DNA from: Calothrix sp. NIES-2100
GTDB taxonomy: Bacteria; Cyanobacteriota; Cyanobacteriia; Cyanobacteriales; Nostocaceae
NCBI GenBank assembly: GCA_002368195.1
Contig: AP018178.1
Coordinates: forward strand, 5,273,286-5,337,285
Reading direction: 5' to 3'
Length of the DNA stretch: 64,000 bases
Shown: in pieces, positions 36,590 to 64,000 of the stretch
Layout: each line of letters opens with the position of its first letter
Position numbering within the stretch: the first letter of the stretch is position 1
The notes under the pieces: model-generated
What the model was told of the DNA's origin: nothing
Database searches by the model: none
The model's input: only the letters and a program-made list of their open reading frames with translations
Position numbers and translations under genes: made by a program

Positions 36590-36602
36590 AGCCAAAATGG
36601 CT
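36590..36602. promoter_or_regulatory. single AGCCAAAATGGCT palindromic motif ~320 nt upstream of RTX-like gene
   Basis: actagccaaaatggctaaattg. Confidence 0.35.
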
Positions 36603-36924
36603 AAATTGTCGTTTAATATGAATTATCCTGTTTATAGGCAAGCATTAACTATAGCTAGCTAATTAATAATTGTAAAGAACAATTATCTATCAAAATTAAA
36701 TCAGACGTACTTCTATCGCCAGTTATTTACTGGGAAAAATCTTATTTTTATGTGATGGGTAAAGCCCAGAGTCAGATTATAAAAAAGGGTGCAGGATAAA
36801 AGTTTATGCACTTATTTATTAATAAATAGGTGAAAAATTAACTGCACATAAATACTTAAGATAGATGGTTCAATAACCATAACTTAAGAATGATGCAGTG
36901 AATAAAGATGAAAAGGACGGTTTC

Positions 36925-41383: not shown

Positions 41384-41407
41384 ATCTTTGTTGCCAGATC
41401 AATGGAA

Positions 41408-42154: not shown

Positions 42155-42229
42155 TTCAGTATTGAAGTTGTATTGCTAATGAAATCCTTTGACACTAACC
42201 CATCAAGCTATGCTGTGCTTTTCCCAGCT

Positions 42230-42787: not shown

Positions 42788-42803
42788 AAATTTCTAAATT
42801 CGA

Positions 42804-44251: not shown

Positions 44252-44261
44252 TTTGCACCTC

Positions 44262-44346
44262 AGTTAATAGTCAATAGTCAATAGTCATTTGTTATTATCT
44301 CCCTCATCTCCCTTATCCCCCACATCCCTAGCCCCTATCCCCTATC
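44262..44346. repeat. STRR heptamer arrays inside sugar operon intergenic gap
   Basis: tcaatagtcaatagtcaatagtca...ccctcatctccc...cctagcccctatcccctatcccc. Confidence 0.8.
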
Positions 44347-44348
44347 CC

Positions 44349-45593: not shown

Positions 45594-45629
45594 GATTTAA
45601 ATTTATTTTTTAAATACCGAATTTTAAAC

Positions 45630-46658: not shown

Positions 46659-46669
46659 ATACGCAAATC

Positions 46670-48541
46670 CTAGGCTGTAATTGCAGGTTGTAGATGCTTT
46701 GGTTCAGTAGCAATAGTTAATGGCTGAATTTCTTGATGATTTACCAGCAATACTTTGGAGACAATTTCATCTCGCAAAGGGGCTGCTTCGTCTTGGGTTA
46801 ACCAAAAGAAGAGCTTTGCTAATGATTGTGGAGAACGATCAATTTTGAGGATTTCTTGGAGCATCAGCAAAGCTCCAGCTAAATTACCCGCCTTGAGAGG
46901 AATTGCTGCATTTGCCAGACAATAATTAAAGTTATAGCTACGAGCTTGACGTGTAATCTCTGAACACAGGTCAGTAGGAAGATAACTCTCAGTAATTTCT
47001 ATATTTTGGCGAATGTAAGCGGCAAGTTTCCCAGATACTAATTGACCATCTGTCATGTTGTTAGTATGCAAGCGGTAACATGCCAAACTTCCTGGCTCGT
47101 ACAACCAATCATAAACAACAGCAATGCGCTTGTATAGTTCCCATTCAGGGGCGCAAACTAATTCAGGATGATAACCTCCTCTGTGTTCATAAGTTACCCG
47201 ACGAATTACAACCGCAGGTACCTGCAACGGAAGTGTGATACCAATTATTTGCAGAAAATTCTGAAGTATGCCTTTGTGTTCTCCAAACAAGGAAACTGGT
47301 TCTCCTGGGTTAACTACTGTTCCTGTCTCATTGATGTATTCAAAACCTGTGAAAGCTGCTCCCACAGAATCTGGACAATCTTCGAGACTATGCTGGAGAC
47401 GGGCGTAAAAATTTGGAAAAACACAATCGTCATCATGTAAAATATGAATCCATTCACCCCGACTAACGCTAACACCCACATTATGATTTGGTAGTGCGCC
47501 AACATTTTGCTGATTGCGGTAGTAGCGAATTACTCCTCCCCCCAAACTATTCACTAGATCAAATAAAGGTTTGGTACTGGCATTGTCCATCACCAGTATT
47601 TCCATTTGCTCTGCCCCAGGCCATTGCACCAGAACGCTAGCTAGACATTCGAGTAGATAATCAGTACGGTTATATACCGGAATCACGACAGACCAAAACG
47701 GTCGAGGTTGCTCAGGGTTGGTGACAGGTGGTATCCCTGGAAACTGATAAGCGCCTACAGTAACTTCGCAGTGGGGTATGGGTGGAGTAACAAGGATATC
47801 CTGAGGGCTGCCAGCTTCTTGATAAGCGGCTACTGCTTGGGCATAGTGAGGATTGAGTAACTTTAATCCTTGGCGATAAGCCGCGATCGCACCCGGAAAA
47901 TCCTTCTGTTGTTGATAAACCCTGCCTAATTTGAGGTACAGTTCGCCATTATCAGGATTGAGTTCCACAGCTTTTTGATAATAAGCGGCAGCAATTTGCC
48001 AATCTCCGGCTGTTTCCCGTTCCATTGCCAATTGCTGATTCAATTGCTCGTAGTAGCTTTTTTGTTCTGCTAAAAGCTTCCCTTGGCTATGCAGTATGTT
48101 GCCTAAATTTACCTCGGCTTCTGTACAGTTAGGCTGAATTTCTAAGGCTTTTTGGTAGCAGCTAACTGCCTCATCTAGCTGCCCTTGTTGTTGGAAGGTG
48201 TAACCCAGGTTGTTGTAAATTGGAGCAGCATCTGGCTTGAGGGCGATCGCTTGTTGGTAAGCTACCACTGCTGCTGCTAATTTACCTTGAGCTTGCTGCA
48301 AATTCCCTAAACTAAACCAGGCGGGAAATAATTGCGGTTGCGCCGCCAATGCTGCATTGAGTAACTCCTCTGCTTGGAGTAGATTACCACGCTGTTGTGC
48401 TATTGTACCTAATCTATATAATGCCTCTGGATGATCGGGCTGTGTTTCCAAAACCTGATGGTATATCATCTCAGCCTGCTCTAAACGATTAGCTCGATGA
48501 TTTTCAATAGCAAGTTGAAGGAGTTCAGAAGCGTTTACCAT
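46670..48541 (-). CDS. TPR-repeat protein fused to family-2 glycosyltransferase domain
   Basis: N-terminal ~250 aa TPR repeats; C-terminal GT-A domain (FWSVVIPVYNRTDYLLECLASVLVQ...VMDNAS...HDDD). Confidence 0.8.
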   Translation of the reverse strand: MVNASELLQLAIENHRANRLEQAEMIYHQVLETQPDHPEALYRLGTIAQQRGNLLQAEELLNAALAAQPQLFPAWFSLGNLQQAQGKLAAAVVAYQQAIALKPDAAPIYNNLGYTFQQQGQLDEAVSCYQKALEIQPNCTEAEVNLGNILHSQGKLLAEQKSYYEQLNQQLAMERETAGDWQIAAAYYQKAVELNPDNGELYLKLGRVYQQQKDFPGAIAAYRQGLKLLNPHYAQAVAAYQEAGSPQDILVTPPIPHCEVTVGAYQFPGIPPVTNPEQPRPFWSVVIPVYNRTDYLLECLASVLVQWPGAEQMEILVMDNASTKPLFDLVNSLGGGVIRYYRNQQNVGALPNHNVGVSVSRGEWIHILHDDDCVFPNFYARLQHSLEDCPDSVGAAFTGFEYINETGTVVNPGEPVSLFGEHKGILQNFLQIIGITLPLQVPAVVIRRVTYEHRGGYHPELVCAPEWELYKRIAVVYDWLYEPGSLACYRLHTNNMTDGQLVSGKLAAYIRQNIEITESYLPTDLCSEITRQARSYNFNYCLANAAIPLKAGNLAGALLMLQEILKIDRSPQSLAKLFFWLTQDEAAPLRDEIVSKVLLVNHQEIQPLTIATEPKHLQPAITA

Positions 48542-48582
48542 ATTTAATTATCTGATTAATTAAGCAATTTTTTAACTAACTT

Positions 48583-50502
48583 TCAGTTGTTATCAAAATC
48601 AATTGGCAGTGAGATTAATTTATGAGCGATCGCATCCCTGAGGGGAGCCGCTTCATCACAGGTTAACCAAATAAATGACTGTGCCACTGCTTCAGGCGAG
48701 GAATCTACAATCAAGGCTTCTTGGAGTTTTACAGCAGCAGCATTAACATTGCCAATTTTTAGTAAATGTGTGGCTTGTGCTAGGAAATTTTGCCAGTAAA
48801 AACTTCGTGATTTAGCAGTAATATTTGCAGCATCTTCTACAGGCAGATAGCTTTCGGAGATTTCAATTGCCCGACTGATATCTTTTCCTTGATTTCCTGC
48901 TAATGAAAGTTCGGTAGTGGCATTTTGAGAATGCTCGCGGTAGCGTGCTAAAACTTCCGGCTCACACCACCAATCATCAGTAGCCGCAATGCGTTTGTAG
49001 AGTTCCCAGTCAGGAGTATATTTCAACTCAGGATGATAAACACCAAGCCTTTCATGGGTGGCGCGCCGAATAACCACCGCAGGCATATTTAATGGGTTAC
49101 CTATCCCAATCCCCTCTATCCAATTTGGCGCTATGCCTCTATACTCTCCATATAGTTTTTGAGTGAAAATTACTTGACCGCGATCGTTAATATTTTCGTA
49201 ACCTGTAAAAGCTGCACCCACCGAGTCTGGACAATTTTCTAAACTCTGCTGTAATCGTTCATAAAATCCAGGCAGAATCAAATCATCATCGTGAAGCAAG
49301 TGAATCCACTGTCCCCGACTCAAAGCAACTCCAGCATTCCAATTACCTGGTAAGCCAAGATTTTGCTGGTTGTGGTAGTAGCGTACTATTCCACCCCCAA
49401 TTGAATTGACTAACTCAGCCAGAGATGAGGAACTAGAATCATCCATGACGATGATTTCCATGTTCTCTGCCCCCTGCCATTGTCGCAGTACACTGGCAAG
49501 ACATTCAAGCAGATAGCTTTTACGGTTATATACAGTAACTACAACAGTCCAAAACGGTCGATTTTCTGCACTGGCTAACACTGGTGAAATTGCGGGAAAT
49601 CGATTTTTGCCAACAATCACTTCTTCAAAGGTAATCGGCGGGGTAGCTTGTTCTAACTGGGTGTAAGTACTATCATCAACCGCCACTGCTTTTGCATAGT
49701 GGGGATTAACTAAGCTTAACCCTTGCCGATATGCACCCACCGCCTTTGGGAATTGGTTTTGCTTTTGATAAATGCTACCTAGGTTAAAGTAAACTTCTCC
49801 ATAGTTGGGGTTGATTTGTTGGACTCTTTCGTAACAAGCGATCGCCTCTTCTAATGTCCCTTGTTCTTGCAGCACTACTCCCAAGTTATAATGAGCTTCT
49901 AGTAAATCGGGTTGTAGTGCGATCGCTTGTCTGTAGTAGGTAACAGCATTCTGCAAATCTCCGGCTTTTTTATGAGCAACACCCAACTTGTTATTTAATT
50001 TTGCATAGTGAAGTTTTTGCTCGCTAGAAAGCTTACCTTGGGCGTGCAGTGTATTCCCCAAATTCGCTTCGGCTTCGCTAAAATCTGGTTTTAATTCGAG
50101 AGCTTTTTGATAGTAGTTAATTGCTTCGTCAAATAGTCCTTGTTGTTGCAGCGCATAGCCCAAGTTGTTGCAAATTGGTATTGAATCCCGTCGGAGAGCT
50201 AAAGCTTGATGGTATGCTGTTACTGCTTGTGAAAACTGCTGTTGAGCTAAACGCAAATTACCTAAACTGAACCAAGCCTTAACAAAGTCAGGCTGCACCT
50301 GCACAACAGTATTCCAGAACTTTTCTGCCGACTCTAACTCACCTTTTTGCTGTGCTAGTACACCTAATCTGTATAATGCTTCTGGATGGTTTGGTTCTTC
50401 TACTAACACCTGATGGTAACTTTGTTCAGCTTCGATTAATTGATTAGCTTGATGATACTTAATAGCAACTTGAAGAGTTGAGGAAGAAGAAATCGTCACC
50501 AT
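48583..50502 (-). CDS. TPR-repeat protein fused to family-2 glycosyltransferase domain (paralogue, first gene of operon)
   Basis: collinear with 46670..48541 (FWTVVVTVYNRKSYLLECLASVLRQ...VMDDSS...HDDD). Confidence 0.8.
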   Translation of the reverse strand: MVTISSSSTLQVAIKYHQANQLIEAEQSYHQVLVEEPNHPEALYRLGVLAQQKGELESAEKFWNTVVQVQPDFVKAWFSLGNLRLAQQQFSQAVTAYHQALALRRDSIPICNNLGYALQQQGLFDEAINYYQKALELKPDFSEAEANLGNTLHAQGKLSSEQKLHYAKLNNKLGVAHKKAGDLQNAVTYYRQAIALQPDLLEAHYNLGVVLQEQGTLEEAIACYERVQQINPNYGEVYFNLGSIYQKQNQFPKAVGAYRQGLSLVNPHYAKAVAVDDSTYTQLEQATPPITFEEVIVGKNRFPAISPVLASAENRPFWTVVVTVYNRKSYLLECLASVLRQWQGAENMEIIVMDDSSSSSLAELVNSIGGGIVRYYHNQQNLGLPGNWNAGVALSRGQWIHLLHDDDLILPGFYERLQQSLENCPDSVGAAFTGYENINDRGQVIFTQKLYGEYRGIAPNWIEGIGIGNPLNMPAVVIRRATHERLGVYHPELKYTPDWELYKRIAATDDWWCEPEVLARYREHSQNATTELSLAGNQGKDISRAIEISESYLPVEDAANITAKSRSFYWQNFLAQATHLLKIGNVNAAAVKLQEALIVDSSPEAVAQSFIWLTCDEAAPLRDAIAHKLISLPIDFDNN

Positions 50503-50700
50503 ATAAATTTCTCTAATAATTTGTAATAGCTAAACCCATAAAAAGCCAGGGCTGTCTTCAAATCAGCTGCTTATTTTGGAGTCACACCCAACTTTTTATT
50601 TATTGATGCATAACTAATATAGTTACTTTGTAAATTTTTTTACCTTCGGTTTTTTATAAATATCTACTACTACTATTAGCTAAATAAATTCCATTTGTAT

Positions 50701-50743
50701 AGTCAAATTGGCTAGAAATCAAAATTTTCTAGCCAATTTGGCT
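50701..50743. promoter_or_regulatory. paired AG(T/C)CAAATTGGCT palindromic motifs, 30-nt centre-to-centre, ~200 nt upstream of sugar/GT operon
   Basis: agtcaaattggctagaaatcaaaattttctagccaatttggct; also forms a 15-nt-arm inverted repeat. Confidence 0.45.
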
Positions 50744-50879
50744 GAGATTTTAATTGCTGCACTCAGTCTGAATTATAAATTATAAAATCTTAGTAAATCT
50801 TAAAAATTGCCGCCAAGTCGATGTAGAGTATGAGAATTACCTGATGTGGACAGAGTGGTATCCAAATTTACTTGATATT

Positions 50880-50950
50880 TAAAGCAGTTGGGATAAATTT
50901 CCCAAGGTTTTTGACAACAAGCGATCGCCTCTTCTAACTAGCTTTGTTCT
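50880..50950 (-). pseudogene. decayed fragment of a TPR-GT paralogue
   Basis: ...acaagcgatcgcctcttctaa...ttgttctgggagtacaacacc closely matches 49845-49900 inside the intact gene, but has no ORF. Confidence 0.4.
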
Positions 50951-50967
50951 GGGAGTACAACACCCTG

Positions 50968-51160
50968 TTAAAATAATTCGTAATTCGTAATTCGTAATTT
51001 TTAATGTAGGGGCACCTTCACCGATATCCTTGTTGAGTACCGACGATCCAAATAAACCCGCCCCTATAGACAGGCGTATCGCCTGACTCAAACAAATTCA
51101 CGTATAGAGTCAGGGGAATTAAACCCAAAAATTACGAATTAGTAATTCGTTAAAATTGAC
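50968..51160. mobile_element. MITE-like element with ~20-bp terminal inverted repeats built on AATTCGT units
   Basis: left aattcgtaattcgtaattcgtaattttt; right aaaaattacgaattagtaattcgtt (reverse complement); ~130-bp core; no ORF. Confidence 0.35.
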
Positions 51161-52177
51161 TACTCTTCAACTAGCCCATTCACCGATCAACAGTAGCTGT
51201 TGATATCGATGGAGCGGTGTTTTTTCGTCGTCTAAATCAGCATTTAGGGCGATCGCTTCGCTGCGATCGGCAACAAAAGTCTGTCAATCACCTATTGCCA
51301 ACAAAACAGTGATGATTGCCTGTCGCTCAAATTTCTTCTATTGAAATCGAACTAAAACCGGATTGTGAACAACTACTAGAAGTAGAGCTTGAGTAACTAA
51401 TCGAACTTGAATTTACGTAAATACTTGCATTTCCCTCAGAGGAAATACTGACAGAAATGCTCTGACTGACCTCACTTTGATCGTCGCCAGATGCCTTGAC
51501 AAAACTTTTAACCTCGGCTATAGTCTTTCCATCAGGTGAGACTATCCGTTTATTTACAACTCGATAGCGATTCACGATCGTCCTACCTACTTGTTGTTTA
51601 TTTGGATAAGATAAGCAAATCAGAGGAAGGATAAGTCAGGGGATAATGCGCGTTACAATTATCACCTGAATTGATCTGGCTCTGATGGCTCGCAACAACA
51701 AAATAAAAGTTTTTTCTGAGATTTGTTAACTTTGGGCAATTAATTTTTTAATTGCCCATGTTCATTATATAGCATAATTGGTGATTAACGATCATATTTT
51801 TGACTGTGTAATTCATAAAAATATCTCATCTATTGATAGATAGTAATTTGATTTTTTATGGTTTTAAATAGATAAATGCCAAAGTTATGGCTAATAACTA
51901 GCAAATTTTCTTGTCCAGATTTAAGCGATGGTTTTTTAGTTTTTGAAGCGATACAAAATCTGTCTTTGCCTTGGAAACTTTCCCATTAGTAAAGTAACCT
52001 GAATTCAAAGATTTATGTATTAACCTGACCCCCAATCCCCAGTATTAAAAATTCTTCCGGATCTTCCCCTCAACCCCGCCACTGCAAATGAGGGGTAGTG
52101 AAAATCGTAATTTTTCTGATTCTTCCCTCTCCTTGTAGGAGAGGGGGATTAGGTGGGTGAGGTTTTTGTAATACAAG

Positions 52178-54652
52178 TTAAAGTATTGCGCCTGCTTTTG
52201 TTTCCTCTAACTTCTGCTGACTTTCATCAATATCTTCTAAAATCCTGTGAACTTCCCTATGGTTGGGATTCAGTTCTAGCGCTTGTTGAAAATAAACTTT
52301 GGCAGTTTGTAAATCACCTGCCTTTTTTCGACTAAGACCTAATTTATAATTTAATTCTGCATAATGAGCTTGTTGGTCTTGTGAGAGTTTACCTTGGGTA
52401 TAAAGCGCATTACCTAAATTTACATCCGCTTCAACGCAGTTGGGCTGTATTTGTAAAGCTTTTTCATAGCAATTTATCGCTTCTTCCCATTTGCCTTGTT
52501 GTTGCAAAGCATAACCCAGGTTGTTGTAAATTGAAACCGCATCTGGTCGCAGAGCAATGGCTTTTCTGTAAGCGTGTTCAGCTTTTGGTAACTGTCCCTG
52601 TAGTTGACACAGATTTCCTAAAGTAAACCAAATTTTGACAGAATCAGGTTGAACTTGTGAAGCTGTACTGAGGAATTTCTCAGCTGCTTGCAATTCTCCC
52701 CTTTGCTGTGCAATTACACCTAGACCATATAAAGCATCAGGATGGTCTGGCTGGATTGACAAAACCTGACGGTAAGCTTGTTCGGCTGGTTCTAAGTGAT
52801 TTTCTCGATGTTCTTGGATTGCTAGTCGCAGGGTTTCCGCAACGCTATTTATAGCAGATATCCTGGGTTTGCCGACAGCATTCAGCAAAAATTCCTCTAA
52901 GGCTCGAATTGGCTCCAAGTCGCCATATAATTTATGCTTGTTCTGGGAAATTAACTCGGATATGTAGTGACGATATTCAGAATCTCTCCCTAGACGGATG
53001 GCAAATTGTACATATTCCTCCTTGCTAGAAGCAATTGTTTCCTCGATACCCATCATCTTCAAGATTGCCAGAGTATGTCGTCCCCTCATCAATTCCCCTG
53101 GTAGAGTGATAACGGGAACGTTATAGGCAATACATTCCAAGGTAGAATTACATCCAGACCAACCGATGCTATCCAGAAAGACATCTGCTATGGCAGCTGT
53201 GCCAGCAAACCTTCTGCTACTCATGCCCGGTAAAAATATACAGTAGTCTTGATAATTCAGCCCAAATTCCTGAAAAATTTGCTGTAAACGCTGACGAAAT
53301 ACTTCAGTAATATATTCACTCTCATCATGTTGGATAAATACAAACTTACAATTGCTTAACTCTTTAGCAATTTTGGGAAAAACGTCATCATGTTGAGGTA
53401 AATATTTAAATAAGGATTGGCAACACCATAACATAATTTCATTATCGGCAATGCCAATATCTTTTTTGCTCACAGCCTCATATTCAGTTGCTAGAGGCGT
53501 GTAATGAATAGATAGATTTGGTAATCTGACTAATTTTTCTGTATAGTGTTCTTGAGCATTTTCTGGTTCCATTAATTCACTGCTCAAGTAATAATCAATG
53601 GTTGGTAAACCACTGGTTTGAGGATGTCCCCAAGAAGTGATTTGAATAGGAGCTAGCTTTAAACAACCTAGTCTTACTGTCATATGATCCATCCCAAATT
53701 CCGGGAAAATCAGGATGTGTAAATTGTCTTTGTAAATTAGCTCAGCCCATTCTTCAAATGACAGTGACCCTTGAGTAAATTTGTCAAATTCTTTTGCGGC
53801 TCTTGTAGTGTTATGATCTCGCTTGGAGTTAGTGTGATATGCAAATAATTCAAATTCACTCCTATCCAAGTTTTCGATCCAACCCTTGATGGGAATTTTC
53901 CAATTAGAATGACTGTAAAAAAATTTGGAAACTAAACCAATACGAACTTTTTGATTTGGCTTTAAATCTGGCAGAGGAATAGCTTGACTCCATTGGGGAT
54001 AACAATTCGACGTAATATGAACAAGCATTTCCCCATAAGTTTTCTGCAAAGTCCGGTCATTTAAGCATTGATAAGCCAGATAAAAAGGCTGTAGTGAACC
54101 TACTGTATCTACAGATTTTTCTAACTCTTGTTTGTCAGCTATTTGATAATTTTGAGCTAATTCTTCTAGGTAATTTTGATAGTTATTTCGCTGAGTATTT
54201 ATTTCTGTATAACTGGAGTAAATAATTGGCAATTGAGCAATGAGAAGTCCAAATTTTGCTCTAGATAAATCAGGTTGAAACTTTAAGGCTTGCTGATATG
54301 CTTCTATAGCAGCCTCTAGGTCACCTAAGTCATAATATGTATTTCCTAAGTTCCAATAAGCATATACAAAATCAGGCATAATTTTTAATGCCTGTTGGAA
54401 GCATTTTTTAGCTGACTCTAAGTCGCGTTGACCCGTCAATGCACAGCCCAAGTTATGATGAGCCTCAGCATAGTCAGGTCTGATTTTTAATGACTGTTGG
54501 AAAGATGCTGCTGCTGCTTCTAGCTTACCTTCTTTTAGAAATATATTCCCTAAATTGAAATGTTCTTCAGCATTCAAATTGGTGTCTGTTACAGGAGAAT
54601 TCGATTGCAAAGATAGAGCCTCTGATGACATAACAACCTCATAAATCTGCAC
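52178..54652 (-). CDS. TPR-repeat protein with central O-GlcNAc-transferase-like (GT41/SPY-like) glycosyltransferase domain
   Basis: N- and C-terminal TPR blocks; central region (RIGLVSKFFYSHSNWKIP...APIQITSWGHPQTSGLPTIDYYLSS...) resembles GT41; C-terminal TPR block near-identical to N-termini of the two TPR-GT2 proteins. Confidence 0.8.
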   Translation of the reverse strand: MQIYEVVMSSEALSLQSNSPVTDTNLNAEEHFNLGNIFLKEGKLEAAAASFQQSLKIRPDYAEAHHNLGCALTGQRDLESAKKCFQQALKIMPDFVYAYWNLGNTYYDLGDLEAAIEAYQQALKFQPDLSRAKFGLLIAQLPIIYSSYTEINTQRNNYQNYLEELAQNYQIADKQELEKSVDTVGSLQPFYLAYQCLNDRTLQKTYGEMLVHITSNCYPQWSQAIPLPDLKPNQKVRIGLVSKFFYSHSNWKIPIKGWIENLDRSEFELFAYHTNSKRDHNTTRAAKEFDKFTQGSLSFEEWAELIYKDNLHILIFPEFGMDHMTVRLGCLKLAPIQITSWGHPQTSGLPTIDYYLSSELMEPENAQEHYTEKLVRLPNLSIHYTPLATEYEAVSKKDIGIADNEIMLWCCQSLFKYLPQHDDVFPKIAKELSNCKFVFIQHDESEYITEVFRQRLQQIFQEFGLNYQDYCIFLPGMSSRRFAGTAAIADVFLDSIGWSGCNSTLECIAYNVPVITLPGELMRGRHTLAILKMMGIEETIASSKEEYVQFAIRLGRDSEYRHYISELISQNKHKLYGDLEPIRALEEFLLNAVGKPRISAINSVAETLRLAIQEHRENHLEPAEQAYRQVLSIQPDHPDALYGLGVIAQQRGELQAAEKFLSTASQVQPDSVKIWFTLGNLCQLQGQLPKAEHAYRKAIALRPDAVSIYNNLGYALQQQGKWEEAINCYEKALQIQPNCVEADVNLGNALYTQGKLSQDQQAHYAELNYKLGLSRKKAGDLQTAKVYFQQALELNPNHREVHRILEDIDESQQKLEETKAGAIL

Positions 54653-54928
54653 TAGATTTAATCCACTCGAACACTATTAAGTGGATTAGTAAGGACACAG
54701 TTTAGAGATGTTAATAAACAAACACAAACTTTGAATAATTTCGTGTCCTTACAAGGACTTCATTTAATTCACATTATTAAATCTTCTTTAGGCGATCGCG
54801 GTCAATACGGTTCAGTTATGACTAAAACTCTTTGTCGAAGTTAATTTTTTAACTTTGACGCTACCCGAAGCTGCTGCTCAAAGGGTAGCGCAGAGGCGCA
54901 GAGTCCATAAGAGAAAAGGAAGAAATCC

Positions 54929-55747
54929 TTAAGTGATGATTTGTATCGAGAGTTGATTAGGAGCGACTCCCTGCACAAACCCAATTAAGTCTAAACCACC
55001 AGCCGCAGTAGGCGATGCAGCAGAAATAAACGTATCAGCACCATTATAACCAAATGAATACGTCGCCGCGCCACTTAACTGGATAATATCCTTACCAACC
55101 TCGTAGTCAAAAATAAACGCATAGTCTGCGTCCTCCCCACCTAGATAAAACGTCCCACCAGCATTACCCAGAACGAATGTATCGGCAGCGTTATCGGGGG
55201 ACAAGCCTACTATATTACCATCGTTGAGAACACCACTACCAACCAAGATATCAAACCCACCCGTCGGAGCAGCAGCGGAAGCTCCCACTATGGTGTCACT
55301 CCCCGCTCCTCCAAATAACTGGTCATCACCATCACCGCCAGTAAGGCTGTCATTGCCGCTATCCCCATAGAGGACGTCATTACCTACAGTGGCATCGAGT
55401 AGATCATTGCCTGCACCCCCATCCAAGTAATCATCGCCTAGACCGCCAAAAAGTTTGTCATCGCCGTTATCCCCAAAGAGTCTATCATCCCCAAAACCCC
55501 CTACCATGAAGTCATTACCATCGCCCCCACGGAGGGTATCATTACCGAAATCTCCGGTGAGGTTGTCATTGCCTTTACCCCCAGAGATGCTGTCATTGCC
55601 GTCACCCCCTAAAATGTTATCATTACCACCTCCACCTATGATGGTGTCATTTCCACTAAGACCTAAGATACTATAGTTAACAGTAATACTGTCTCCCCCT
55701 GGTACAGTGATTTTATCGTTGCCATTGGTTCCTAATTTAGAAGGCAT
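54929..55747 (-). CDS. hemolysin-type calcium-binding (RTX) repeat protein
   Basis: tandem GGxGNDxLxG nonapeptides ([42 protein letters not shown]...). Confidence 0.85.
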
Positions 55748-56085
55748 ATTTTTTGTCTCCTATAGTCTTAAAATTACAATTTTTTTGACACTGGTTATAT
55801 TTGTGTGAAAACCGCTATATTTCGTTTACACAAGCATTTCCACCCAGCCTAATTACATTGGCTTTCAAGTAATGCCTGTTGAAGATTTTTTCACATTGCA
55901 AAAATGTCACTCATCTATAGTTTTATGTGTTCAGAACTATAGAAAAGTGACTTATGTTTTTACCAACTTTTTGTTTACCTAAATTATCTATTGCTGAAAG
56001 ATTCTTAAAAAGCTCCCAGCAATTTTTATCAAATTTTGAAAAGTTGGCGATTAAGTTTCTATTTCGACCATGTCGAACTAGAAAC

Positions 56086-56385
56086 TTACTTTCCGCTGTA
56101 AGCAGTAGAGTTAACTAAAGCGTTAGCAGCACCAGCTGTGGTTTGAGTAACAAATACGATTTGAGCAATGTTCTTTTGTCCACCAGAAGCATCAGCAGAA
56201 CCAGATACTTCAGCCAAGTTACCAGCTAAACCACCGGTGTTCACAGCAAAGCTCTTGTAGGTGGTTTCGACAATGGTTTGCTTAACGTTTTTGTTGAGGT
56301 TAAAGGCTACGTTGGTAGCGAATCCGTCGCCACCAATTACTTCTTCAGATGCATCTTCAAAGTAGTTTAGGTCGTTGATAATCAT
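56086..56385 (-). CDS. small secreted peptide precursor with double-glycine-type leader (bacteriocin-like), copy A
   Basis: start set at MIINDLNYFEDASEEVIGG (strong AGGAGA RBS 9 nt upstream; ORF track begins further upstream); 99 aa; Gly/Ala/Thr/Asn-rich core. Confidence 0.6.
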   Translation of the reverse strand: MIINDLNYFEDASEEVIGGDGFATNVAFNLNKNVKQTIVETTYKSFAVNTGGLAGNLAEVSGSADASGGQKNIAQIVFVTQTTAGAANALVNSTAYSGK

Positions 56386-56465
56386 TGCTTTTCTCCTGAG
56401 ATTTGTTTGTATCAACTCTGTTTGAGTTGTTGATATCAATATAGCTAAGTCAATTCTGCTTGTAT

Positions 56466-56508
56466 AGCCAAATTGGCTGGATTTTAGAATTTCCTAGCCA
56501 ATTTGGCT
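56466..56508. promoter_or_regulatory. paired AGCCAA(A/T)TTGGCT motifs, 30-nt spacing, ~80-120 nt upstream of copy A
   Basis: tagccaaattggctggattttagaatttcctagccaatttggctga. Confidence 0.45.
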
Positions 56509-56700
56509 GATTAATTCAGTTAGAGTCAAAAACCGAAAATTGTTCAGGGGTGATTGAGCAACAAAACCCAACATTTTCGGGACTTTGTTGGGGTTCACTA
56601 CGTCCAAATACCACCTTGGTCAAGTCGAGAAACTTGCTCATGGAAGTGGCTCTCTAACCTACAATGATCCTTAACACCAAGCGTATTGGGTAATAATCGG

Positions 56701-56740
56701 AAATAAAAACACACCCAGTTTTATGTTTTCAACTGGGTGT
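56701..56740 (-). terminator. minus-strand rho-independent terminator between duplicated units
   Basis: minus strand reads acacccagttgaaaacataaaactgggtgt followed by gtttttattt. Confidence 0.55.
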
Positions 56741-56983
56741 TATTTCTTAAAAGCGTTATATCAATTGTATGTATATTGACAGAATAAAAGCAGAGGGCAG
56801 GAGGCAGGTATACTGCTATCTATGAATTAGGCTATAAAAAAGTTACTTACATGTTATTACCAACCTTTCTTTAACTAAATAATTAATTGGTGAAAGCTTT
56901 TAAAAGCTTTCACCAATTTTTATCAAATTTTGAAAAGTTGGCGATTTAAGTTCCAATTTCGACCATGTCGAACTACCGGAAAC

Positions 56984-57283
56984 TTACTTTCCGCTGTAAG
57001 AAGTAGAGTTAACTAAAGCGTTAGCTGAATTGGCTGTGGTTTGAGTAACAAATACGATTTGAGCGATGTTCTTTTGTCCGCCAGAAGCATCAGCAGAACC
57101 AGATACTTCAGCCAAGTTACCAGCTAAACCGCCTGTGTTCACAGCAAAGCTCTTGTAGGTGGTTTCGACAATGGTTTGCTTAACGTTTTTGTTGAGGTTA
57201 AAGGCTACGTTGGTAGCGAATCCGTCGCCACCAATTACTTCTTCAGATGCATCTTCAAAGTAGTTTAGGTCGTTAATAATCAT
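56984..57283 (-). CDS. small secreted peptide precursor with double-glycine-type leader, copy B
   Basis: 99 aa; differs from copy A at a few core positions (TTANSANALVNSTSYSGK versus TTAGAANALVNSTAYSGK). Confidence 0.6.
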   Translation of the reverse strand: MIINDLNYFEDASEEVIGGDGFATNVAFNLNKNVKQTIVETTYKSFAVNTGGLAGNLAEVSGSADASGGQKNIAQIVFVTQTTANSANALVNSTSYSGK

Positions 57284-57362
57284 TGCTTTTCTCCTGGTTT
57301 TGTTTGTATCAACTCTGTTTGAGTTGTTCATATAAATATAGCTAAGTAAATTCTGCTTGTAT

Positions 57363-57405
57363 AGCCAATTTGGCTGGATTTTAGAATTTTCTAGCCAATT
57401 TGGCT
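57363..57405. promoter_or_regulatory. paired AGCCAATTTGGCT motifs, 30-nt spacing, upstream of copy B
   Basis: atagccaatttggctggattttagaattttctagccaatttggctg. Confidence 0.45.
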
Positions 57406-57544
57406 GCTTAATTCATTTAGAGTCAAAAACTGGAAATTGTGCAAGAGGGATTAATGATTGAAACCCTACATTTTCGGGACTTTGTTGAGTTTTTACACGC
57501 TGAAACCAACATACAGTTATCCTAATCATATTGGGTAATAATTT

Positions 57545-57588
57545 GAAATGAAAACACACCCAGTTTTATGTTTTCAACTAGGTGTTGT
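57545..57588 (-). terminator. minus-strand terminator upstream of copy B promoter
   Basis: minus strand reads aacacctagttgaaaacataaaactgggtgtgttttcattt. Confidence 0.45.
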
Positions 57589-57893
57589 TTTTCCCTGGCG
57601 TTATATCAATAATATGTATATAGCAATCCTCAATAATTTGCGAACAACACAAACCCCGACTTCTTAAAGAAATCGGATATCTGAGGTTCTCAGTACTGCT
57701 ATATGTATGTATATTGACGCTTAATAAGGCGTGGATAATTAAAACAAATATCTGAGTTTTAATTCGTAATTACAAATTCCCCGCAACAGTATCAGTTTTC
57801 TAGGCTTAAATATTAAGCGTGTAGCTATCAACAAACTCTAAAAATTACTAAATGTAATCGGGAGAATTTGCTTTAATTCGTGGCTGGATAATT

Positions 57894-58160
57894 TTATTTA
57901 GATGCATAAGCAAGCGCTTGCGAAGAAGCAACAGCTATATAAGGAACTTTTTTTAAAGGTGATGTTATCACTTGCGATCCAGCTCGTGCATAAGTGGTTT
58001 TACCTTCGGCTGAGGCAAAACCACTACCATTTGAAAAGGCACTGAATCGCGATGCTTCACTTAAACTCGAAGATGATGAGACTGCTGAAACACCACCGCT
58101 TAAGATGATGCTGTTTTCCGCAGTTATAGAGGCTAAATATTCTAAATCAGCAATTTTCAT
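57894..58160 (-). CDS. small secreted peptide precursor with GG-type leader (divergent, Ser/Ala-rich core)
   Basis: start set at MKIADLEYLASITAENSIILSGG (ttggagaatttaaaagcATG RBS); 88 aa. Confidence 0.5.
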   Translation of the reverse strand: MKIADLEYLASITAENSIILSGGVSAVSSSSSLSEASRFSAFSNGSGFASAEGKTTYARAGSQVITSPLKKVPYIAVASSQALAYASK

Positions 58161-58413
58161 GCTTTTAAATTCTCCAATTAATGGTTGTAACAATATTAGA
58201 CAATTGTAAATTTTAATAATTTTATTTAGAATATAAATTTATCTATCCTAAATAAAAAGCATCTATCTTTTGATAGATTTTTACCCGGGAAAGGAAAAAT
58301 GATTATGCAGAATGTAAATTATCAAGATTTAATTAAAAAAATCTTTAGAAACCTGTGTTTTTTCTTTTGAATTAAACCCGAGAAAATTTTAACTAATTTC
58401 ATTAGAGATGAGG

Positions 58414-58426
58414 AGCCAATTTGGCT
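58414..58426. promoter_or_regulatory. single AGCCAATTTGGCT motif upstream of 57894..58160
   Basis: gaggagccaatttggcttc. Confidence 0.35.
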
Positions 58427-58679
58427 TCATTTTTATAGATAAATATCTCAGTCCTCAGCAAAATGCCCACAGTAAAGGCGAATGGTGAATTGTAAAGAGT
58501 TGGTAAAGTTAATTACAACCACAAATAGGGGTAGCATCAGCCGTAAACATCCCTTTCTGGAAAAGTTTTCATCCAAGTACAGTGGGCGCGTCAATAAACC
58601 ACCCATTAACAATTTCTGAAACAACAAGCGAAAATTTAACAGGACTTACGCACAACACAACGAAAGTAGCGTTTATAAG

Positions 58680-58760
58680 TAGGTAGACACAATTATTTAG
58701 AAGACGCATTTCGACTTCTCCCAAGGGGAGACGCTACGCGAACGCTCAATGCTCGATAGC
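58680..58760. repeat. partial copy 3 of dispersed structured repeat
   Basis: gggagacgctacgcgaacgctc matches cores of copies at 9727 and 36395. Confidence 0.35.
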
Positions 58761-59055
58761 TTGACAAGAAGAGGGTTGAGAGGAGTCGAAACCCGGTAAT
58801 GCGTTCGTTAGGTTTAATTTAGTCCCCTTAGGGAAGGCGAAGCCCAAGGGGAATAGGAACCTCTTCAAGGGAAAGAGTTTTGCTACCCAGATATAAGGGC
58901 TTCGCCCAACGCAGTACGCATATACATGAATGAAAGCTACGCAAAAATCAGGTTTTTGGTCACATTTTGCGTAAGTTCTACCTAATTAGGAATTACGTAG
59001 ATGCAGGTATAGCCTGAGCAGCTTCTTTTAGGCTAGTGCGGAGGCTGACAGGGTA

Positions 59056-59391
59056 TTAAGAATTACCTACTCCTCGCAAAGGTATTAGTACCTTGGGTTT
59101 TAATATTGATGATGCAACTGCGAGAAGTTTACTAATACCTTTAACCGCAGATGGAGTAACTAACGGTATCGCCTTAGCCCAATTTAAACGCCAATTCCCG
59201 ATCGCTGTACCAATTCCTGGGCTGGAGCTAGCAGTCTTGCCTGTATTATAGTTACTCAAACTCATAGCACTTACAGAAATACTACGGTTCTGGTTCAGAC
59301 TAGCAGTGACATTGAGATCGCCACCCCCGATAACAGTGTCATCGTCAGAAATAGGCTCTAAATGGTCTAAATCGTAAATCTTCATGCTCAT
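59056..59391 (-). CDS. small secreted peptide precursor with GG-type leader (divergent)
   Basis: MSMKIYDLDHLEPISDDDTVIGGG leader; aattggagaattta 5' leader shared with 57894 gene; exact start (59391 versus 59385) uncertain. Confidence 0.5.
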   Translation of the reverse strand: MSMKIYDLDHLEPISDDDTVIGGGDLNVTASLNQNRSISVSAMSLSNYNTGKTASSSPGIGTAIGNWRLNWAKAIPLVTPSAVKGISKLLAVASSILKPKVLIPLRGVGNS

Positions 59392-59778
59392 TAAATTCTC
59401 CAATTTATGCATTGTTGAGCATCTATATGAATTCTGACTTTAATATTTATAAATTCAGGAACTACCTAGTTGGTTCAAAAAATGATGGTAGAGGCACCAA
59501 ACTATCGCTGCAAGGTAATTAAAAAATTAGACAATATTCAGCTAACTGGATGTTTATTTTTTTCCGGCTCTTATGCAGCAAGCTTGATGACAAACTTGCT
59601 AGTTAAAAAAGCAGATTCAAGCCTACTTATTTTTCTTTTTAAGTAAAAAATTTACGCCATATTTAAGGAAAATTTCCAGTTTTAAATTTTGATATGGTTT
59701 GTCAACATTTCGCGATTTTACTTTTATCTAAGTTCATCAAACCTTTAAGAGTCTACCTAATTTAATCGAAAAATTAAA

Positions 59779-59791
59779 GCCATTTTGGCTA
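59779..59791. promoter_or_regulatory. single AGCCATTTTGGCT motif upstream of 59056 gene
   Basis: aaagccattttggctaa. Confidence 0.3.
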
Positions 59792-60635: not shown

Positions 60636-60760
60636 TGGGTACTAGGGACTAGGGGGATGAGGGGGACAAGGGAGACAAGGAGGACAAGGGAGACAAGGGA
60701 GACAAATATTCAATACCCGATGCCCAATGCCCAATGCCCAATGCCCAATGCCCATTTTAT
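60636..60760. repeat. STRR heptamer arrays (CTAGGGA, GACAAGG, CCCAATG)
   Basis: gggactagggggatgagggggacaagggagacaagg...cccaatgcccaatgcccaatgcccaatgccc. Confidence 0.8.
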
Positions 60761-62913
60761 GATTTCATTTCGCCGAACTTAGGACTCCACCAGCCTTTTT
60801 GGGTATGAAAGTAAGCTACATCTTTGTGTTTCTTATCTTGACGAGACTGGGGATTGGAACACCGCAGCATGGTTTTACGCTGTCCATCTTTGGTGTAGCT
60901 GTATTCTTCCAAAAACTTTTTACACACCGGACAGGGGTATGAGGTGATTTTCGCTGTCGATTTTTCATCCTTGGTGTCTTTGGTGCGAGGTGCTTCCCAA
61001 GCTTTGTGAAATTCGTTCCAAAATAGGACAATGTTTTCACAGCCACTATGACATTTAAGGAAGTACTTCTTTTTAACTTTAGTGCTAGGAATTTTGGCGA
61101 GAAAATTATTGCACTGCGGACAACGAGTTCTGGAAGTTTCAAATTTGCGATCAGCGACAGCAGCAGTTTTCACCCCATTGCTTGAATTCACAGCTACAGT
61201 TTTGGCTTTAGCTAAGGCTGGTGCAAAGTAATTTTGATTCCAACTTGTGAGGTATTGCTGCCAAGGTTGTTTTCCGGAGGCGATCGCATCTAAAGCATCT
61301 TCCATTTTGGCGGTAAATTCTGCCTCTAGTAAATCTGGTAAGGCTTTTTGTAAAAAAACGTCAACTTCTAACCCTAGAGTTGTCGGCTGGATACTTTCTT
61401 TTGTTAACTGGATGTAACCCCGTTTTTTCAAAGTAGCAATGGTGGGAGAATAGGTACTAGGACGACCAATGCCTTTACGCTCCATCAGTTGCACTAATTT
61501 TGGTTCGCTGTAACGCGGTGGTGGCTGGGTTTGTTTTTTCTCGTGACCTGCATCTGCTAAAGTTAGCATTTGTCCTTGTTGCAAGGCAGGTAACATAGTA
61601 TCTTTGCCAAGATTAGGCCAGTAGCGCGCATAACCTAAAAATTCGACTACTTGTCCTCTAGCTTGCCAGATGATTTCACCAGATTGAGTGATAACCTTCG
61701 TTTTCCGGAGTTGGGCTGGGCGACATTGAGAAGCGATCGCTCTTTTCCAAATTAAAACATACAAGTTAAATTCATCGTTCGGCAATTCCACTCGTAACTG
61801 CGCCGAAGGACGAAACACATCTGTAGGACGAATCGCTTCATGGGCTTCTTGCGCAGTTTTATGGCTGCGATGTCTAGTTGTACGTTGGGGTACGTTCTGC
61901 GGATCGTTTGCTTCTAACCACTTACGCGCACTTTCACAAAACTCAGGACTTAGCATCACTGAGTCTGTCCGCATATATGTAATTAACCCCGCTTCATAAA
62001 GCTTTTGGGCTACCTGCATGGTTTTCTCAGGGGGAAATCGTAACCGAGAACCAGCCGCTTGTTGGAGAGTGGAGGTGATAAAAGGTGGCGGTGGTTGGCG
62101 GTTGCTGACTTTTCCTTCATATTGCACAACTTGGTGGGGATGGCGTTTCGCTTCTTCCACTAGGCGTGTGGCTTCGGCTTCGGAAAGCACCCGCGTCGAT
62201 TCTGGTGCTGTTTGATTATTAATTGTCGTATCATCATGTACCTCGGTTTCCTGCTTCGCCGCTTCCTGAGTTGCATTCGCCATCCCGTGATAAAAAGCCC
62301 GGAATCCCTCAGCATAGTCTACCCAGACACTCCAGTAATCTTGGGGGACAAAGGTTTGAATTTCGCGTTCTCTCTGACAAATTAGGTGTAATGTGGCACT
62401 CTGGACTCTGCCGACACTCTTAGCACCATTATTTAAAGCCCATACTAAAGGACTGCCCTTATAGCCTACCAGCTTGTCTAAGCAATCTCGACACAAACCT
62501 GCACCGACTAAATTCAGGTCAAGTTTTCGCGGATGAGCGATCGCACTGCGCACAGCTGATGCGGTAATTTCTGTATAGACTACTCGCTTGACTTCCCTTA
62601 AACCTAGCACTTCTTGGAGATGCCAAGCGATCGTTTCCCCCTCTCTATCTGGATCGGTGGCTAAGACAACTTCAGTTACCTGTTTAGCTACAGTCTTCAA
62701 TTGCTGGATAGTTTCTTTTGACCGTTCGTCACGGGGGACATAATTGCAGCGCACTTTACCATCATCCATACTAAATCCCAGCGCATCTTCTCCTTGATCG
62801 CTGAGTTCGCGAATGTGACCGCAACTCGCACGCACAATCCACTCTGTACCCAGAATTTCACTGAGTTTTTTGACTTTTCCCGGCGATTCAACTACTAGAA
62901 GGCGTTTAGGCAT
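60757..62913 (-). CDS. topA: DNA topoisomerase I
   Basis: N-terminal Toprim MPKRLLVVESPGKVKKL...; 718 aa; C-terminal Cys-rich zinc-ribbon repeats (CPQCNN..., CPVCKK...). Confidence 0.9.
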   Translation of the reverse strand: MPKRLLVVESPGKVKKLSEILGTEWIVRASCGHIRELSDQGEDALGFSMDDGKVRCNYVPRDERSKETIQQLKTVAKQVTEVVLATDPDREGETIAWHLQEVLGLREVKRVVYTEITASAVRSAIAHPRKLDLNLVGAGLCRDCLDKLVGYKGSPLVWALNNGAKSVGRVQSATLHLICQREREIQTFVPQDYWSVWVDYAEGFRAFYHGMANATQEAAKQETEVHDDTTINNQTAPESTRVLSEAEATRLVEEAKRHPHQVVQYEGKVSNRQPPPPFITSTLQQAAGSRLRFPPEKTMQVAQKLYEAGLITYMRTDSVMLSPEFCESARKWLEANDPQNVPQRTTRHRSHKTAQEAHEAIRPTDVFRPSAQLRVELPNDEFNLYVLIWKRAIASQCRPAQLRKTKVITQSGEIIWQARGQVVEFLGYARYWPNLGKDTMLPALQQGQMLTLADAGHEKKQTQPPPRYSEPKLVQLMERKGIGRPSTYSPTIATLKKRGYIQLTKESIQPTTLGLEVDVFLQKALPDLLEAEFTAKMEDALDAIASGKQPWQQYLTSWNQNYFAPALAKAKTVAVNSSNGVKTAAVADRKFETSRTRCPQCNNFLAKIPSTKVKKKYFLKCHSGCENIVLFWNEFHKAWEAPRTKDTKDEKSTAKITSYPCPVCKKFLEEYSYTKDGQRKTMLRCSNPQSRQDKKHKDVAYFHTQKGWWSPKFGEMKS

Positions 62914-63360: not shown

Positions 63361-64000
63361 TCAACACAATGAAGCGTAGTTGTTATTTAAAAATGTCTTG
63401 AGTAACAATGCTTCAATTTGGTGAACAGCTAGAGGTGGAGAAAACAAGTAGCCTTGACCAAATTCACATCCAAGTTCCTGTAACCATTGCAGCTGTTGTT
63501 GTGTTTCAATACCTTCTGCCAGAACTGCTAAACCAAGTTGATTGCTGAGTGTGATGATAGTTTTTACCAGTTGATAATTTCGACTCCCTTCTTGCATTTG
63601 ATTAATAAAAGAACGGTCTATTTTCAAAGTGTCAGCGGGTAAGCGATGCAGATAATTGAGTGACGAATAGCCAGTACCAAAATCATCAATACTAATTTGA
63701 ATTCCTAATTTTTTTAACTGCTCTAATACAATGAGCATCTCAGTAATATTATCAATTAGCATACTCTCGGTAATTTCTAAAGTTAGATATTGACCATCTA
63801 AACCTGTATCAGTGAGAATGCGTTCTACGTCTTTCACTAAAGTAGGTTTATGAAGGTCTTGAACTGATAGATTAACACTAACCTTGAGTGGGAATTGAGC
63901 GCCAAAATGAGTTTGCCAGGTTGCCATCTGCTGACAGGCAGTGTGGAGTATCCAGTTATCTAGAGGAATAATTAGTCCTGTTTCTTCCGCTATGGGAATA
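63361..64000 (-). CDS. EAL-domain (c-di-GMP phosphodiesterase) protein, partial; N-terminus beyond window end
   Basis: LEITES, DDFGTGYSSL, QGYLFS motifs; reading frame stays open upstream of the track's first Met (…FIPIAEETGLIIPLDNWILHTACQQMATW…) to the window edge. Confidence 0.8.
   Translation of the reverse strand, partial: IPIAEETGLIIPLDNWILHTACQQMATWQTHFGAQFPLKVSVNLSVQDLHKPTLVKDVERILTDTGLDGQYLTLEITESMLIDNITEMLIVLEQLKKLGIQISIDDFGTGYSSLNYLHRLPADTLKIDRSFINQMQEGSRNYQLVKTIITLSNQLGLAVLAEGIETQQQLQWLQELGCEFGQGYLFSPPLAVHQIEALLLKTFLNNNYASLC

Follow-up and report, generated by a model that had tools for sequence, protein, structure and literature searches.

Introduction

Does a short palindrome that recurs in front of peptide genes and a glycosylation operon mark a dedicated regulon, and if so, what kind of protein would read it? 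The question is raised by a 64-kb stretch of Calothrix sp. NIES-2100 DNA (the window, meaning the whole stretch analysed), in which the 13-base palindrome AGCCA-WWW-TGGCT stands upstream of four genes for small peptides with a double-glycine leader (the GG-leader peptide genes, pep1 to pep4), a gene for a protein of about 440 amino acids (the 440-aa gene) and a 10.5-kb sugar/glycosyltransferase operon, six promoters in all. The initial annotation of this DNA had taken the palindrome for the operator of a dimeric transcription factor and had proposed that peptide genes and glycosylation machinery belong to one dedicated regulon. The restriction of the palindrome to one gene island and its conservation at orthologous promoters support both proposals, the operator being a putative one. 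We put at roughly 0.6 the probability that AGCCA-WWW-TGGCT serves a homodimeric activator as its operator, the activator binding at -41 and the strongest promoters offering it an additional helper site at -71.

Distribution of the palindrome in the window

The consensus that fits all our data is AGCCAWWWTGGCT, that is, AGCCA-WWW-TGGCT. At one mismatch or fewer it is found nine times in the window, where 0.44 sites are expected, and none of 100 shuffles reached nine. The sites are as follows.

36590 to 36602, plus strand: single palindrome of the 440-aa gene, AGCCAAAATGGCT
50701 to 50713, minus strand: proximal palindrome of the operon, AGCCAATTTGACT in gene orientation
50731 to 50743, minus strand: distal palindrome of the operon, 30 nucleotides (nt) upstream of the proximal copy
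56466 to 56478, minus strand: proximal palindrome of pep1
56496 to 56508, minus strand: distal palindrome of pep1, a further 30 nt upstream
57363 to 57375, minus strand: proximal palindrome of pep2
57393 to 57405, minus strand: distal palindrome of pep2
58414 to 58426, minus strand: single palindrome of pep3
59778 to 59790, minus strand: single palindrome of pep4, AGCCAAAATGGCT in gene orientation

Eight of these positions agree with the initial annotation; the last site starts at 59778 rather than 59779. The consensus given there, AGCCAA(A/T)TTGGCT, is exact in six sites, while the other three depart from it by one base (36590, AGCCAAAATGGCT; 50701, AGTCAAATTGGCT; 59778, AGCCATTTTGGCT), for which reason AGCCA-WWW-TGGCT fits better. 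Relaxing AGCCAA(A/T)TTGGCT to two mismatches gives 15 matches in the window against 2.9 expected, and the six extra ones, all with two mismatches and all within coding sequence, are at chance level. The nine sites themselves are all non-coding, in a window of which 22% is non-coding. No further site at one mismatch or fewer to AGCCAWWWTGGCT turned up anywhere in the 64 kb, as had been claimed, and the approximately 40 kb of the window outside the island contain none.

At three promoters, those of the operon, pep1 and pep2, the palindrome comes in paired copies, and the reported spacing of 30 nt centre to centre is exact in all three pairs. The three pairs are not independent of each other. pep1 and pep2 form a tandem duplication of about 900 bp that contains the pairs 56466/56496 and 57363/57393, and because both lie inside it they count as one; in addition, the operon pair and the pep1/pep2 pairs belong to a common 69-nt module that is 83% identical. 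The window thus holds four independent contexts, namely the 69-nt module, pep3, pep4 and the 440-aa gene.

Promoter architecture

With every site oriented with its own gene, a simple rule emerges that the initial annotation had not noted: a spacer of exactly 22 nt, or 21 nt at the 440-aa gene, separates the proximal palindrome from a TAnnnT hexamer. In the window these hexamers are the following.

36624 to 36629, plus strand: predicted -10 box TATCCT of the 440-aa gene, 21 nt after the palindrome
50673 to 50678, minus strand: predicted -10-like hexamer TAATAG of the operon, 22 nt after the proximal palindrome and identical in the related metagenomic contig L017
56438 to 56443, minus strand: predicted -10 box TATATT of pep1, 22 nt after the palindrome and followed by a 5'-terminal hairpin
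57335 to 57340, minus strand: predicted -10 box TATATT of pep2
58386 to 58391, minus strand: predicted -10 box TAAAAT of pep3, 22 nt after the palindrome
59750 to 59755, minus strand: predicted -10 box TAGACT of pep4, 22 nt after the palindrome

When the promoters of relatives described below are included, the spacing holds for 13 promoters in four organisms, the 440-aa promoter having 21 nt in each of three species. TAnnnT occupies that spot in 11 of the 13, and the two operon promoters have TAATAG. By comparison, TAnnnT is found at only 2.1% of the non-coding positions of the window. The offset was noticed post hoc and was not set in advance; even so, three independent matches at the same offset and one at the neighbouring offset are very unlikely to be due to chance despite the approximately 40 offsets possible. 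A promoter scan independently lists TATACA-17-TATATT at pep1 and pep2. A -10 box abutting the palindrome (TATACA) was considered as a general solution and rejected, the pep3, pep4 and 440-aa promoters having no -10-like sequence there.

At the -35 position the palindrome promoters match TTGACA in only two to four of six bases, and no good -35 box is present; most of them carry a G at -14. If the hexamer is the -10 box (-12 to -7), the proximal palindrome would extend from about -47 to -35 and be centred at about -41 where the spacer is 22 nt or -40 where it is 21 nt, and the distal copies would be centred near -71. The initial annotation had placed the sites in the non-coding leader, always 5' of the gene: they are indeed all 5' of their genes and non-coding, but, lying upstream of the predicted -10 box, they would not be part of the transcribed leader.

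Relatives with the palindrome

A 115-kb metagenomic contig (L017/L018) carries the same flanking genes as the window. Its 440-aa promoter reads AGCCATTTTGGCT-N21-TATCCT, with the site at 9589, and the promoter of its TPR-GT2 operon has the pair AGTCAATTTGGCT and AGCCAATTTGGCT, 30 nt apart at 21284/21314, with the same one-base G-to-A departure as the proximal operon copy of NIES-2100. Tolypothrix sp. FACHB-123 (L112) has five sites against 0.20 expected. One, at 9674, belongs to the 440-aa promoter (AGCCATTTTGGCT, N21-TATCCT), a pair 30 nt apart precedes N22-TATATT at a pep1-type GG-leader peptide gene, and a single site at 16160 precedes N22-TAGAAT at the pep4 orthologue. A palindrome at 15240-15252 of the same contig, followed by N22-TAAAAT, has no open reading frame (ORF) of more than 39 aa before the next promoter; it may be the trace of a pep3 orthologue that has decayed, or belong to a small RNA. 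In an ENA metagenome orthologue of pep1 (L108/L109), the symmetric variant TGCCAAAATGGCA-N22-TATATT precedes each of two tandem gene copies, and the 440-aa promoter of Calothrix sp. FACHB-156 (L019) carries a degenerate form, AGCCATTCAGGCT.

In a comparison of 18 sites, positions 2-5, 9, 10 and 12 are invariant, and the central three bases are always A or T. The spacer of 21-22 nt between palindrome and -10 box has kept its length between orthologous promoters while its sequence has diverged; at the 440-aa gene, for instance, the stretch 'atatgaattatcct' at the -10 box is kept in L017 and L112 and the 21-nt spacer differs. The layout is likewise kept promoter by promoter, double at pep1 (NIES-2100 and FACHB-123) and at the operon (NIES-2100 and L017), single at the 440-aa gene and pep4. 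FACHB-123 and L017 thus repeat the palindrome, the spacing to the -10 box and the choice of one or two copies, with diverged flanks; a lack of conservation at orthologous promoters, which the initial annotation had named as a refuting result, was not found.

Two details of the orthologous 440-aa promoters are worth recording. The central triplet is AAA in NIES-2100 (36590-36602) and TTT in L017 (9589-9601) and L112 (9674-9686), so that the 13-mers of NIES-2100 and of L017/L112 are exact reverse complements; this flip looks like a hairpin-loop-type micro-inversion, or else the orientation of the centre is free. The JGI contig with the closest 440-aa orthologue (L016, 75% identity) starts a few bases before the -10 hexamer and lacks the palindrome position; its start may represent an assembly break at the palindrome.

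Relatives without the palindrome

The pep1 orthologues of Gloeotrichia echinulata GP01 (L008) and of two JGI metagenome contigs (L011, L012) have no palindrome at two mismatches or fewer. Their promoters instead read TTGACT-16/17-TAnnnT, in which TTGACT is a five-of-six match to the -35 box, and Nostoc sp. UHCC 0252 (L113) is likewise without palindrome and with a TTGACT -35 box. Gloeotrichia GP01 has the palindrome at neither of two loci (L008, L111); in this one genome sampled twice, presence of the motif is all-or-none. The putative regulon is restricted to some lineages, the same genes occurring without the motif in two metagenomic taxa, in Gloeotrichia and in Nostoc sp. UHCC 0252, and between genera it is the -35 side of the promoter that appears to differ, being either TTGACT or the palindrome.

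What the two promoter types appear to share is the other end. In all eight pep1-type promoters, with or without palindrome, the minimum-free-energy fold puts a stem-loop 5-8 nt past the hexamer (window 56405-56430 and 57303-57327, both minus strand; L008 9932-9955; L011 8361-8386; L012 6019-6043; L113 upstream of 9092). The stems are CAACTC/GAGTTG, GTGGAC/GTCCAC, GTGAGC/GCTCAC, TAGCCAAC/GTTGGTTA and CAAACAA/TTGTTTG. Because the stem sequence differs in every genome, the changes would be compensatory, and because the position of the stem-loop behind the hexamer is kept, we take the -10 box and the transcript 5' end to be orthologous across genera, which lends independent support to the hexamer as the -10 box. 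The predicted stem-loop may stabilise the 5' end or act in regulation. It has no match in Rfam, where a covariance-model search returned only two chance-level matches (E 0.5-0.7), both in peptide coding regions.

Beyond orthologous promoters, the palindrome is absent from approximately 174 kb of related cyanobacterial DNA. Together with the window, this speaks against one concern of the initial annotation, that the motif might be a generic repeat: in the DNA covered it occurs only at the promoters of this gene island. When 185,579 genomes representing species were searched for the exact dual motif, there was no cyanobacterial match, NIES-2100 itself not being returned, and only seven unrelated non-cyanobacterial assemblies with tandem repeats. 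A plasmid search in PLSDB gave no match. A relaxed dual-pattern scan of metagenomes was uninformative: it returned 88 loci (L020-L107), nearly all of them tandem remnants of the spliced leader of dinoflagellates, CCGTAGCCATTTTGGCTCAAG, which has the 13-mer AGCCATTTTGGCT as its core. Tandem 15-nt relics of this leader dominate the marine metagenome matches; this is a sequence coincidence, unrelated to the cyanobacterial element. The one match with a 17-nt gap and the AATTT centre, L072, has no cyanobacterial features.

Gene content of the island

With 100% identity, the pep1 product corresponds to NIES2100_43090 and the 440-aa protein to NIES2100_42950, both encoded on a 9.9-Mb replicon of Calothrix sp. 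NIES-2100. The island is bounded by a gene for an S66 LD-carboxypeptidase (35297-36316) and by topA (60757-62913), which also border the matching island in relatives. Between them lie the following features.

36898 and 38623, plus strand: two paralogous genes for proteins of about 450 aa with no Pfam domain
36898/36925 to 38259, plus strand: the 440-aa gene, NIES2100_42950, the first of these two
40052 to 50502, minus strand (running from 50502 to 40052): the 10.5-kb sugar/glycosyltransferase operon, assigned by Pfam
52178 to 54652, minus strand: TPR-GT41 protein, assigned by Pfam
54929 to 55747, minus strand: RTX-repeat protein
ATGs at 56388, 57286, 58163 and 59391, minus strand: the four GG-leader peptide genes
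56086 to 56388, minus strand: pep1, NIES2100_43090, a 100-aa GG-leader peptide (MIINDLNYFEDASEEVIGG...)
56984 to 57286, minus strand: pep2, a GG-leader peptide, DNA 96% identical to pep1
57894 to 58163, minus strand: pep3, a GG-leader peptide (MKIADLEYLASITAENSIILSGG...)
59056 to 59391, minus strand: pep4, a GG-leader peptide (MKIYDLDHLEPISDDDTVIGGG...)

The operon encodes, by Pfam content, two TPR-GT2 glycosyltransferases, an epimerase/dehydratase, a sugar C-methyltransferase, a nucleotidyltransferase, a PIG-L deacetylase, a dTDP-sugar 3,5-epimerase, an SDR protein and a DUF4910/HTH_47 aminopeptidase-like protein. The products of the four peptide genes each have an N-terminal leader of about 20 aa that ends in GG. 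The pep4 orthologue in FACHB-123 is at 15347-15667, and a search with the pep1 sequence found only five relatives. The label 'RTX-like' that the initial annotation gave to the gene at 36898 does not hold: its product has no RTX match in Pfam or NCBIfam and is a member of a family of proteins of about 440 aa, widespread in cyanobacteria, in which Pfam recognises no domain. The gene that does encode RTX repeats (54929-55747) lacks a palindrome of its own, and neither is there a site upstream of the second paralogue (38623).

In relatives, the peptide orthologues lie directly downstream of genes for a cyclic-nucleotide-monophosphate (cNMP)-binding C39-peptidase ABC exporter, an HlyD-type protein and a parvulin-type rotamase, a neighbourhood that fits export of the peptides with cleavage at the double glycine. 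When the exporter locus of NIES-2100 was sought through the flanking rotamase of these relatives, no NIES-2100 protein was among the best 120 matches. A functional tie between the 440-aa gene and the peptide/export system comes from Nostoc sp. UHCC 0252, where that gene directly follows those for the exporter and the peptides. The GG-leader peptide genes come in two arrangements, one adjoining the C39-ABC/HlyD/rotamase export genes and with TTGACT promoters (L008, L011, L012, L113), the other in a separate island from the S66 peptidase gene to topA and with palindrome promoters (window 36.5-60.7 kb; L112 9.6-16.9 kb).

Some further observations concern the island and its edges. A serine-rich 82-aa ORF (MNRYRVVNKRIVSPDGKTIAEVKS...) at 51327-51575 on the minus strand has no Pfam match; it is probably a real small gene of the island, because it has a clear orthologue in Tolypothrix sp. 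FACHB-123 (L112 13884-14117). Similar GC-rich stretches (...ggggagacgc...cgctacgcgaacgctc...) are found in the window at 36360-36430 and 58690-58770, in L008 at 9360-9420 and in L113 at about 9780-9850, and these intergenic stretches look like a dispersed Nostocales repeat family. Just beyond topA (L015 2630-3799, about 4 kb past the right window edge) are an IS605-type OrfB/TnpB gene and a gene for a large GAF-PAS-GGDEF-EAL protein, of which the EAL ORF at 63361-63927 of the window is the C-terminal portion.

Search for the regulator

The initial annotation saw no regulator gene in the window, and a Pfam scan of all ORFs of at least 100 aa agrees, finding no classical transcription factor there. 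There is none in the 7.9 kb beyond the right edge, which hold a mechanosensitive (MS) channel, the IS605 OrfB and the GGDEF/EAL protein, and none was found in the syntenic flanks of relatives. Two candidates were rejected. One is the DUF4910 protein (40052-41383), which carries an HTH_47 domain at its C-terminus: L017 and L112, both motif-positive, lack it, and FACHB-156, where the site is degenerate, has it, so that it does not co-occur with the motif. A conserved 112-aa protein (29800-30138) shows nothing DNA-binding.

Discussion

Let us suppose that a homodimeric factor encoded outside the window binds the palindrome at the position of the -35 box. Since the proximal palindrome occupies that position with its centre at about -41, the bound factor would then bring RNA polymerase to promoters with no core element other than a -10 box, in the manner of class II activation at promoters that depend on NtcA; and since the sites lie upstream of the predicted -10 box and are centred near -41, activation seems likelier than classical repression. 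The combination of a -10 box with a poor -35 region, a trait of class II promoters, is what we find (TAnnnT in 11 of 13; -35 matches of two to four of six, against five of six for the TTGACT of palindrome-less promoters). The second copy near -71, about three helical turns upstream at pep1/pep2 and the operon, might serve cooperative binding or a second polymerase contact. The regulon would comprise the four GG-leader peptide genes, the gene for the 440-aa secreted-type protein and the TPR-glycosyltransferase/nucleotide-sugar operon. What we observe is the motif, enriched and conserved, at a constant distance from the -10 box and with a distinct phyletic pattern; the transcription start sites, the protein binding and the sign of regulation are what we infer from this.

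Several points weigh against such an activator. The number of independent cases is smaller than it looks, as three of the six window promoters share the homologous 69-nt module. The operon hexamer, TAATAG, is a poor -10 box without the final T. The placement at -41 rests on a predicted -10 box, and an alternative MAFFT alignment sets the TATACA directly after the palindrome opposite the -10 box of the orthologues. No candidate regulator gene lies in the window or flanks. The site itself, 13 bp and odd-centred with 5-bp arms 8 bp apart, is shorter than sites of the CRP/FNR/NtcA type. Finally, a repressor could just as well make use of a site that overlaps the -35 region.

A repressor acting on the same sites is in fact the main rival, although we consider it unlikely. 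Here a dimer on the palindrome, or a tetramer over the paired copies, would occlude the -35 region and keep the island silent until a signal arrives. The overlap with the -35 position suits this proposal, and repressors commonly have two operators some three turns apart. Some basal promoter for it to shut off may exist, given that the TATACA-17-TATATT of pep1 and pep2 is a 9-of-12 sigma-70-like match in the scan, and the G at -14 could make the promoters independent of a -35 box. However, the -35 matches are poor, whereas the palindrome-less orthologues have the near-consensus TTGACT, as would be expected where an activator was lost or absent. The strict phasing of 21-22 nt, moreover, is a hallmark of contact between activator and polymerase, repressor operators being positionally freer.

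It is improbable that the palindromes are a dispersed or mobile repeat (REP-, MITE- or SDR-like), or a duplicated or gene-converted promoter cassette, with no specific regulator. The 83% identity of the 69-nt module at the operon and pep1/pep2, the tandem duplication of the latter, the ability of the operon pair to fold into a 19-bp hairpin and the central triplet flipped between orthologues as in hairpin-loop inversions would all be natural for such an element. Yet there are no copies off the island in some 40 kb of the window, nor off orthologous promoters in the related DNA, nor was the exact dual motif found in any other cyanobacterial species representative among the 185,579 genomes. The pep3, pep4 and 440-aa sites have only the palindrome and the -10 box in common with the 69-nt module, the phasing to the -10 box is fixed, and the sites persist at orthologous promoters across genera with arms and spacing kept and flanks diverged.

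We give very little credence to the idea that the right arm, TTGGCT, is by itself a -35-type element for an alternative sigma factor (group 3 SigF/SigJ-like or extracytoplasmic function (ECF)), acting without a separate factor. The distance of 21-22 nt from TTGGCT to the hexamer is far over the 16-19 nt spanned by sigma regions 4 and 2, one-sided sigma contact would not explain why both arms are equally conserved, and the GGG trio of SigJ promoters is found in one of 13 promoters; these facts outweigh the absence of a sigma-70 -35 box, the G at -14 and TAnnnT of most promoters, and the loose resemblance of the FACHB-123 pep4 promoter GGGTAGAAT to the SigJ J-Box GGGaAtacT. Least plausible of all is a role at the RNA level, as hairpins in read-through transcripts serving as terminators or processing sites between tandem genes: a terminator scan does flag 50700-50744, 58412-58428 and 59778-59790, but on the plus strand, where no gene ends nearby, while the hairpin read in gene orientation is not followed by a T-run, the stem of a single site has only 5 bp, pep2 has a strong terminator of its own (56885-56918), Rfam has no matching family and the fixed distance to the downstream -10 box would go unexplained.

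It is a long shot that an exported GG-leader peptide, possibly glycosylated by the co-regulated TPR-glycosyltransferases, acts as an extracellular, autoinducing signal through the factor onto its own promoter and the glycosylation operon. Were this true, heterocystous cyanobacteria would have a regulon resembling peptide quorum sensing, which some lineages had acquired in replacement of constitutive TTGACT promoters.

The island encodes an uncharacterised system widespread in filamentous cyanobacteria, with small secreted GG-leader proteins, the conserved 440-aa protein and an RTX protein, together with glycosylation enzymes in which GT2 or GT41 is fused to TPR and the pathway of an unusual nucleotide sugar. 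The conserved putative operator offers a bait for the regulator, delimits the genes that would act together and predicts that they are switched on as a unit. The locus also appears to be a natural example of promoter rewiring, in which the same -10 box and 5' hairpin are combined, depending on the genus, with a consensus -35 box or with a putative factor site at -41. An exact-string literature search with the 13-mer and with its 11-nt core found no description of the motif. As far as we have checked, the motif, the regulon and the alternation between TTGACT and factor site among genera appear new, and the kind of element is familiar.

Comparison with known systems

Operators of the CRP/FNR family are even-centred palindromes of 14-22 bp with 5-bp half-sites 9-11 bp apart. 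Unlike these, the present site is a 13-bp odd-centred palindrome whose half-site centres are 8 bp apart and whose flanks are not consistently palindromic. The closest parallel in layout is perhaps provided by the canonical NtcA-activated class II promoters, in which GTAN8TAC has its centre at -41.5, the -10 box is TAN3T and a -35 box is lacking (PMC3898017). As in those promoters, the palindrome here replaces the -35 box, its last base about 22 nt before TAnnnT and its predicted centre at about -41. The resemblance does not extend to the motif. The initial annotation could not match it to NtcA, and none of the 18 sites contains GTA-N8-TAC; there is no GTA...TAC but a 13-bp odd-centred site of 5-bp arms and a 3-bp gap, in place of 14-16 bp even-centred, some promoters have a second copy near -71, and the targets are secretion and glycosylation rather than nitrogen control.

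The SigJ J-Box of Nostoc punctiforme, GGGaAtacT, is an extended -10 element whose GGG trio is 'absolutely conserved' (PMC6495340). The present promoters share with it the lack of a conserved -35 box and the reliance on the -10 region, with a frequent G at -14, but the GGG trio is found only in the FACHB-123 pep4 promoter (1 of 13), and the J-Box has no upstream palindrome.

With respect to the genes served, the streptococcal pheromone and bacteriocin regulons come to mind. Their ComE/BlpR boxes are direct repeats, read by LytTR response regulators, upstream of GG-leader peptide genes and accessory operons. Here, too, a short repeated motif precedes each GG-leader peptide gene and an accessory operon; in contrast, the repeat is inverted, and the island holds no kinase, regulator or exporter gene.

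Among cyanobacteria, a counterpart is the ebfG operon/PteB system of Synechococcus elongatus PCC 7942, in which small secreted GG-motif matrix proteins are reported to leave the cell through a C39-peptidase transporter, with control by SigF1 (PMC11345509, PMC9981879). The systems have in common small secreted proteins with a double-glycine leader, a link to a C39-peptidase exporter (here, by way of relatives, a cNMP-binding C39-peptidase ABC exporter with an HlyD protein) and a dedicated co-regulated set (here predicted). They differ in that the ebfG proteins have no detectable sequence homology to the peptides of the island, and in that the set in Calothrix sp. NIES-2100 would include a TPR-glycosyltransferase/nucleotide-sugar operon.

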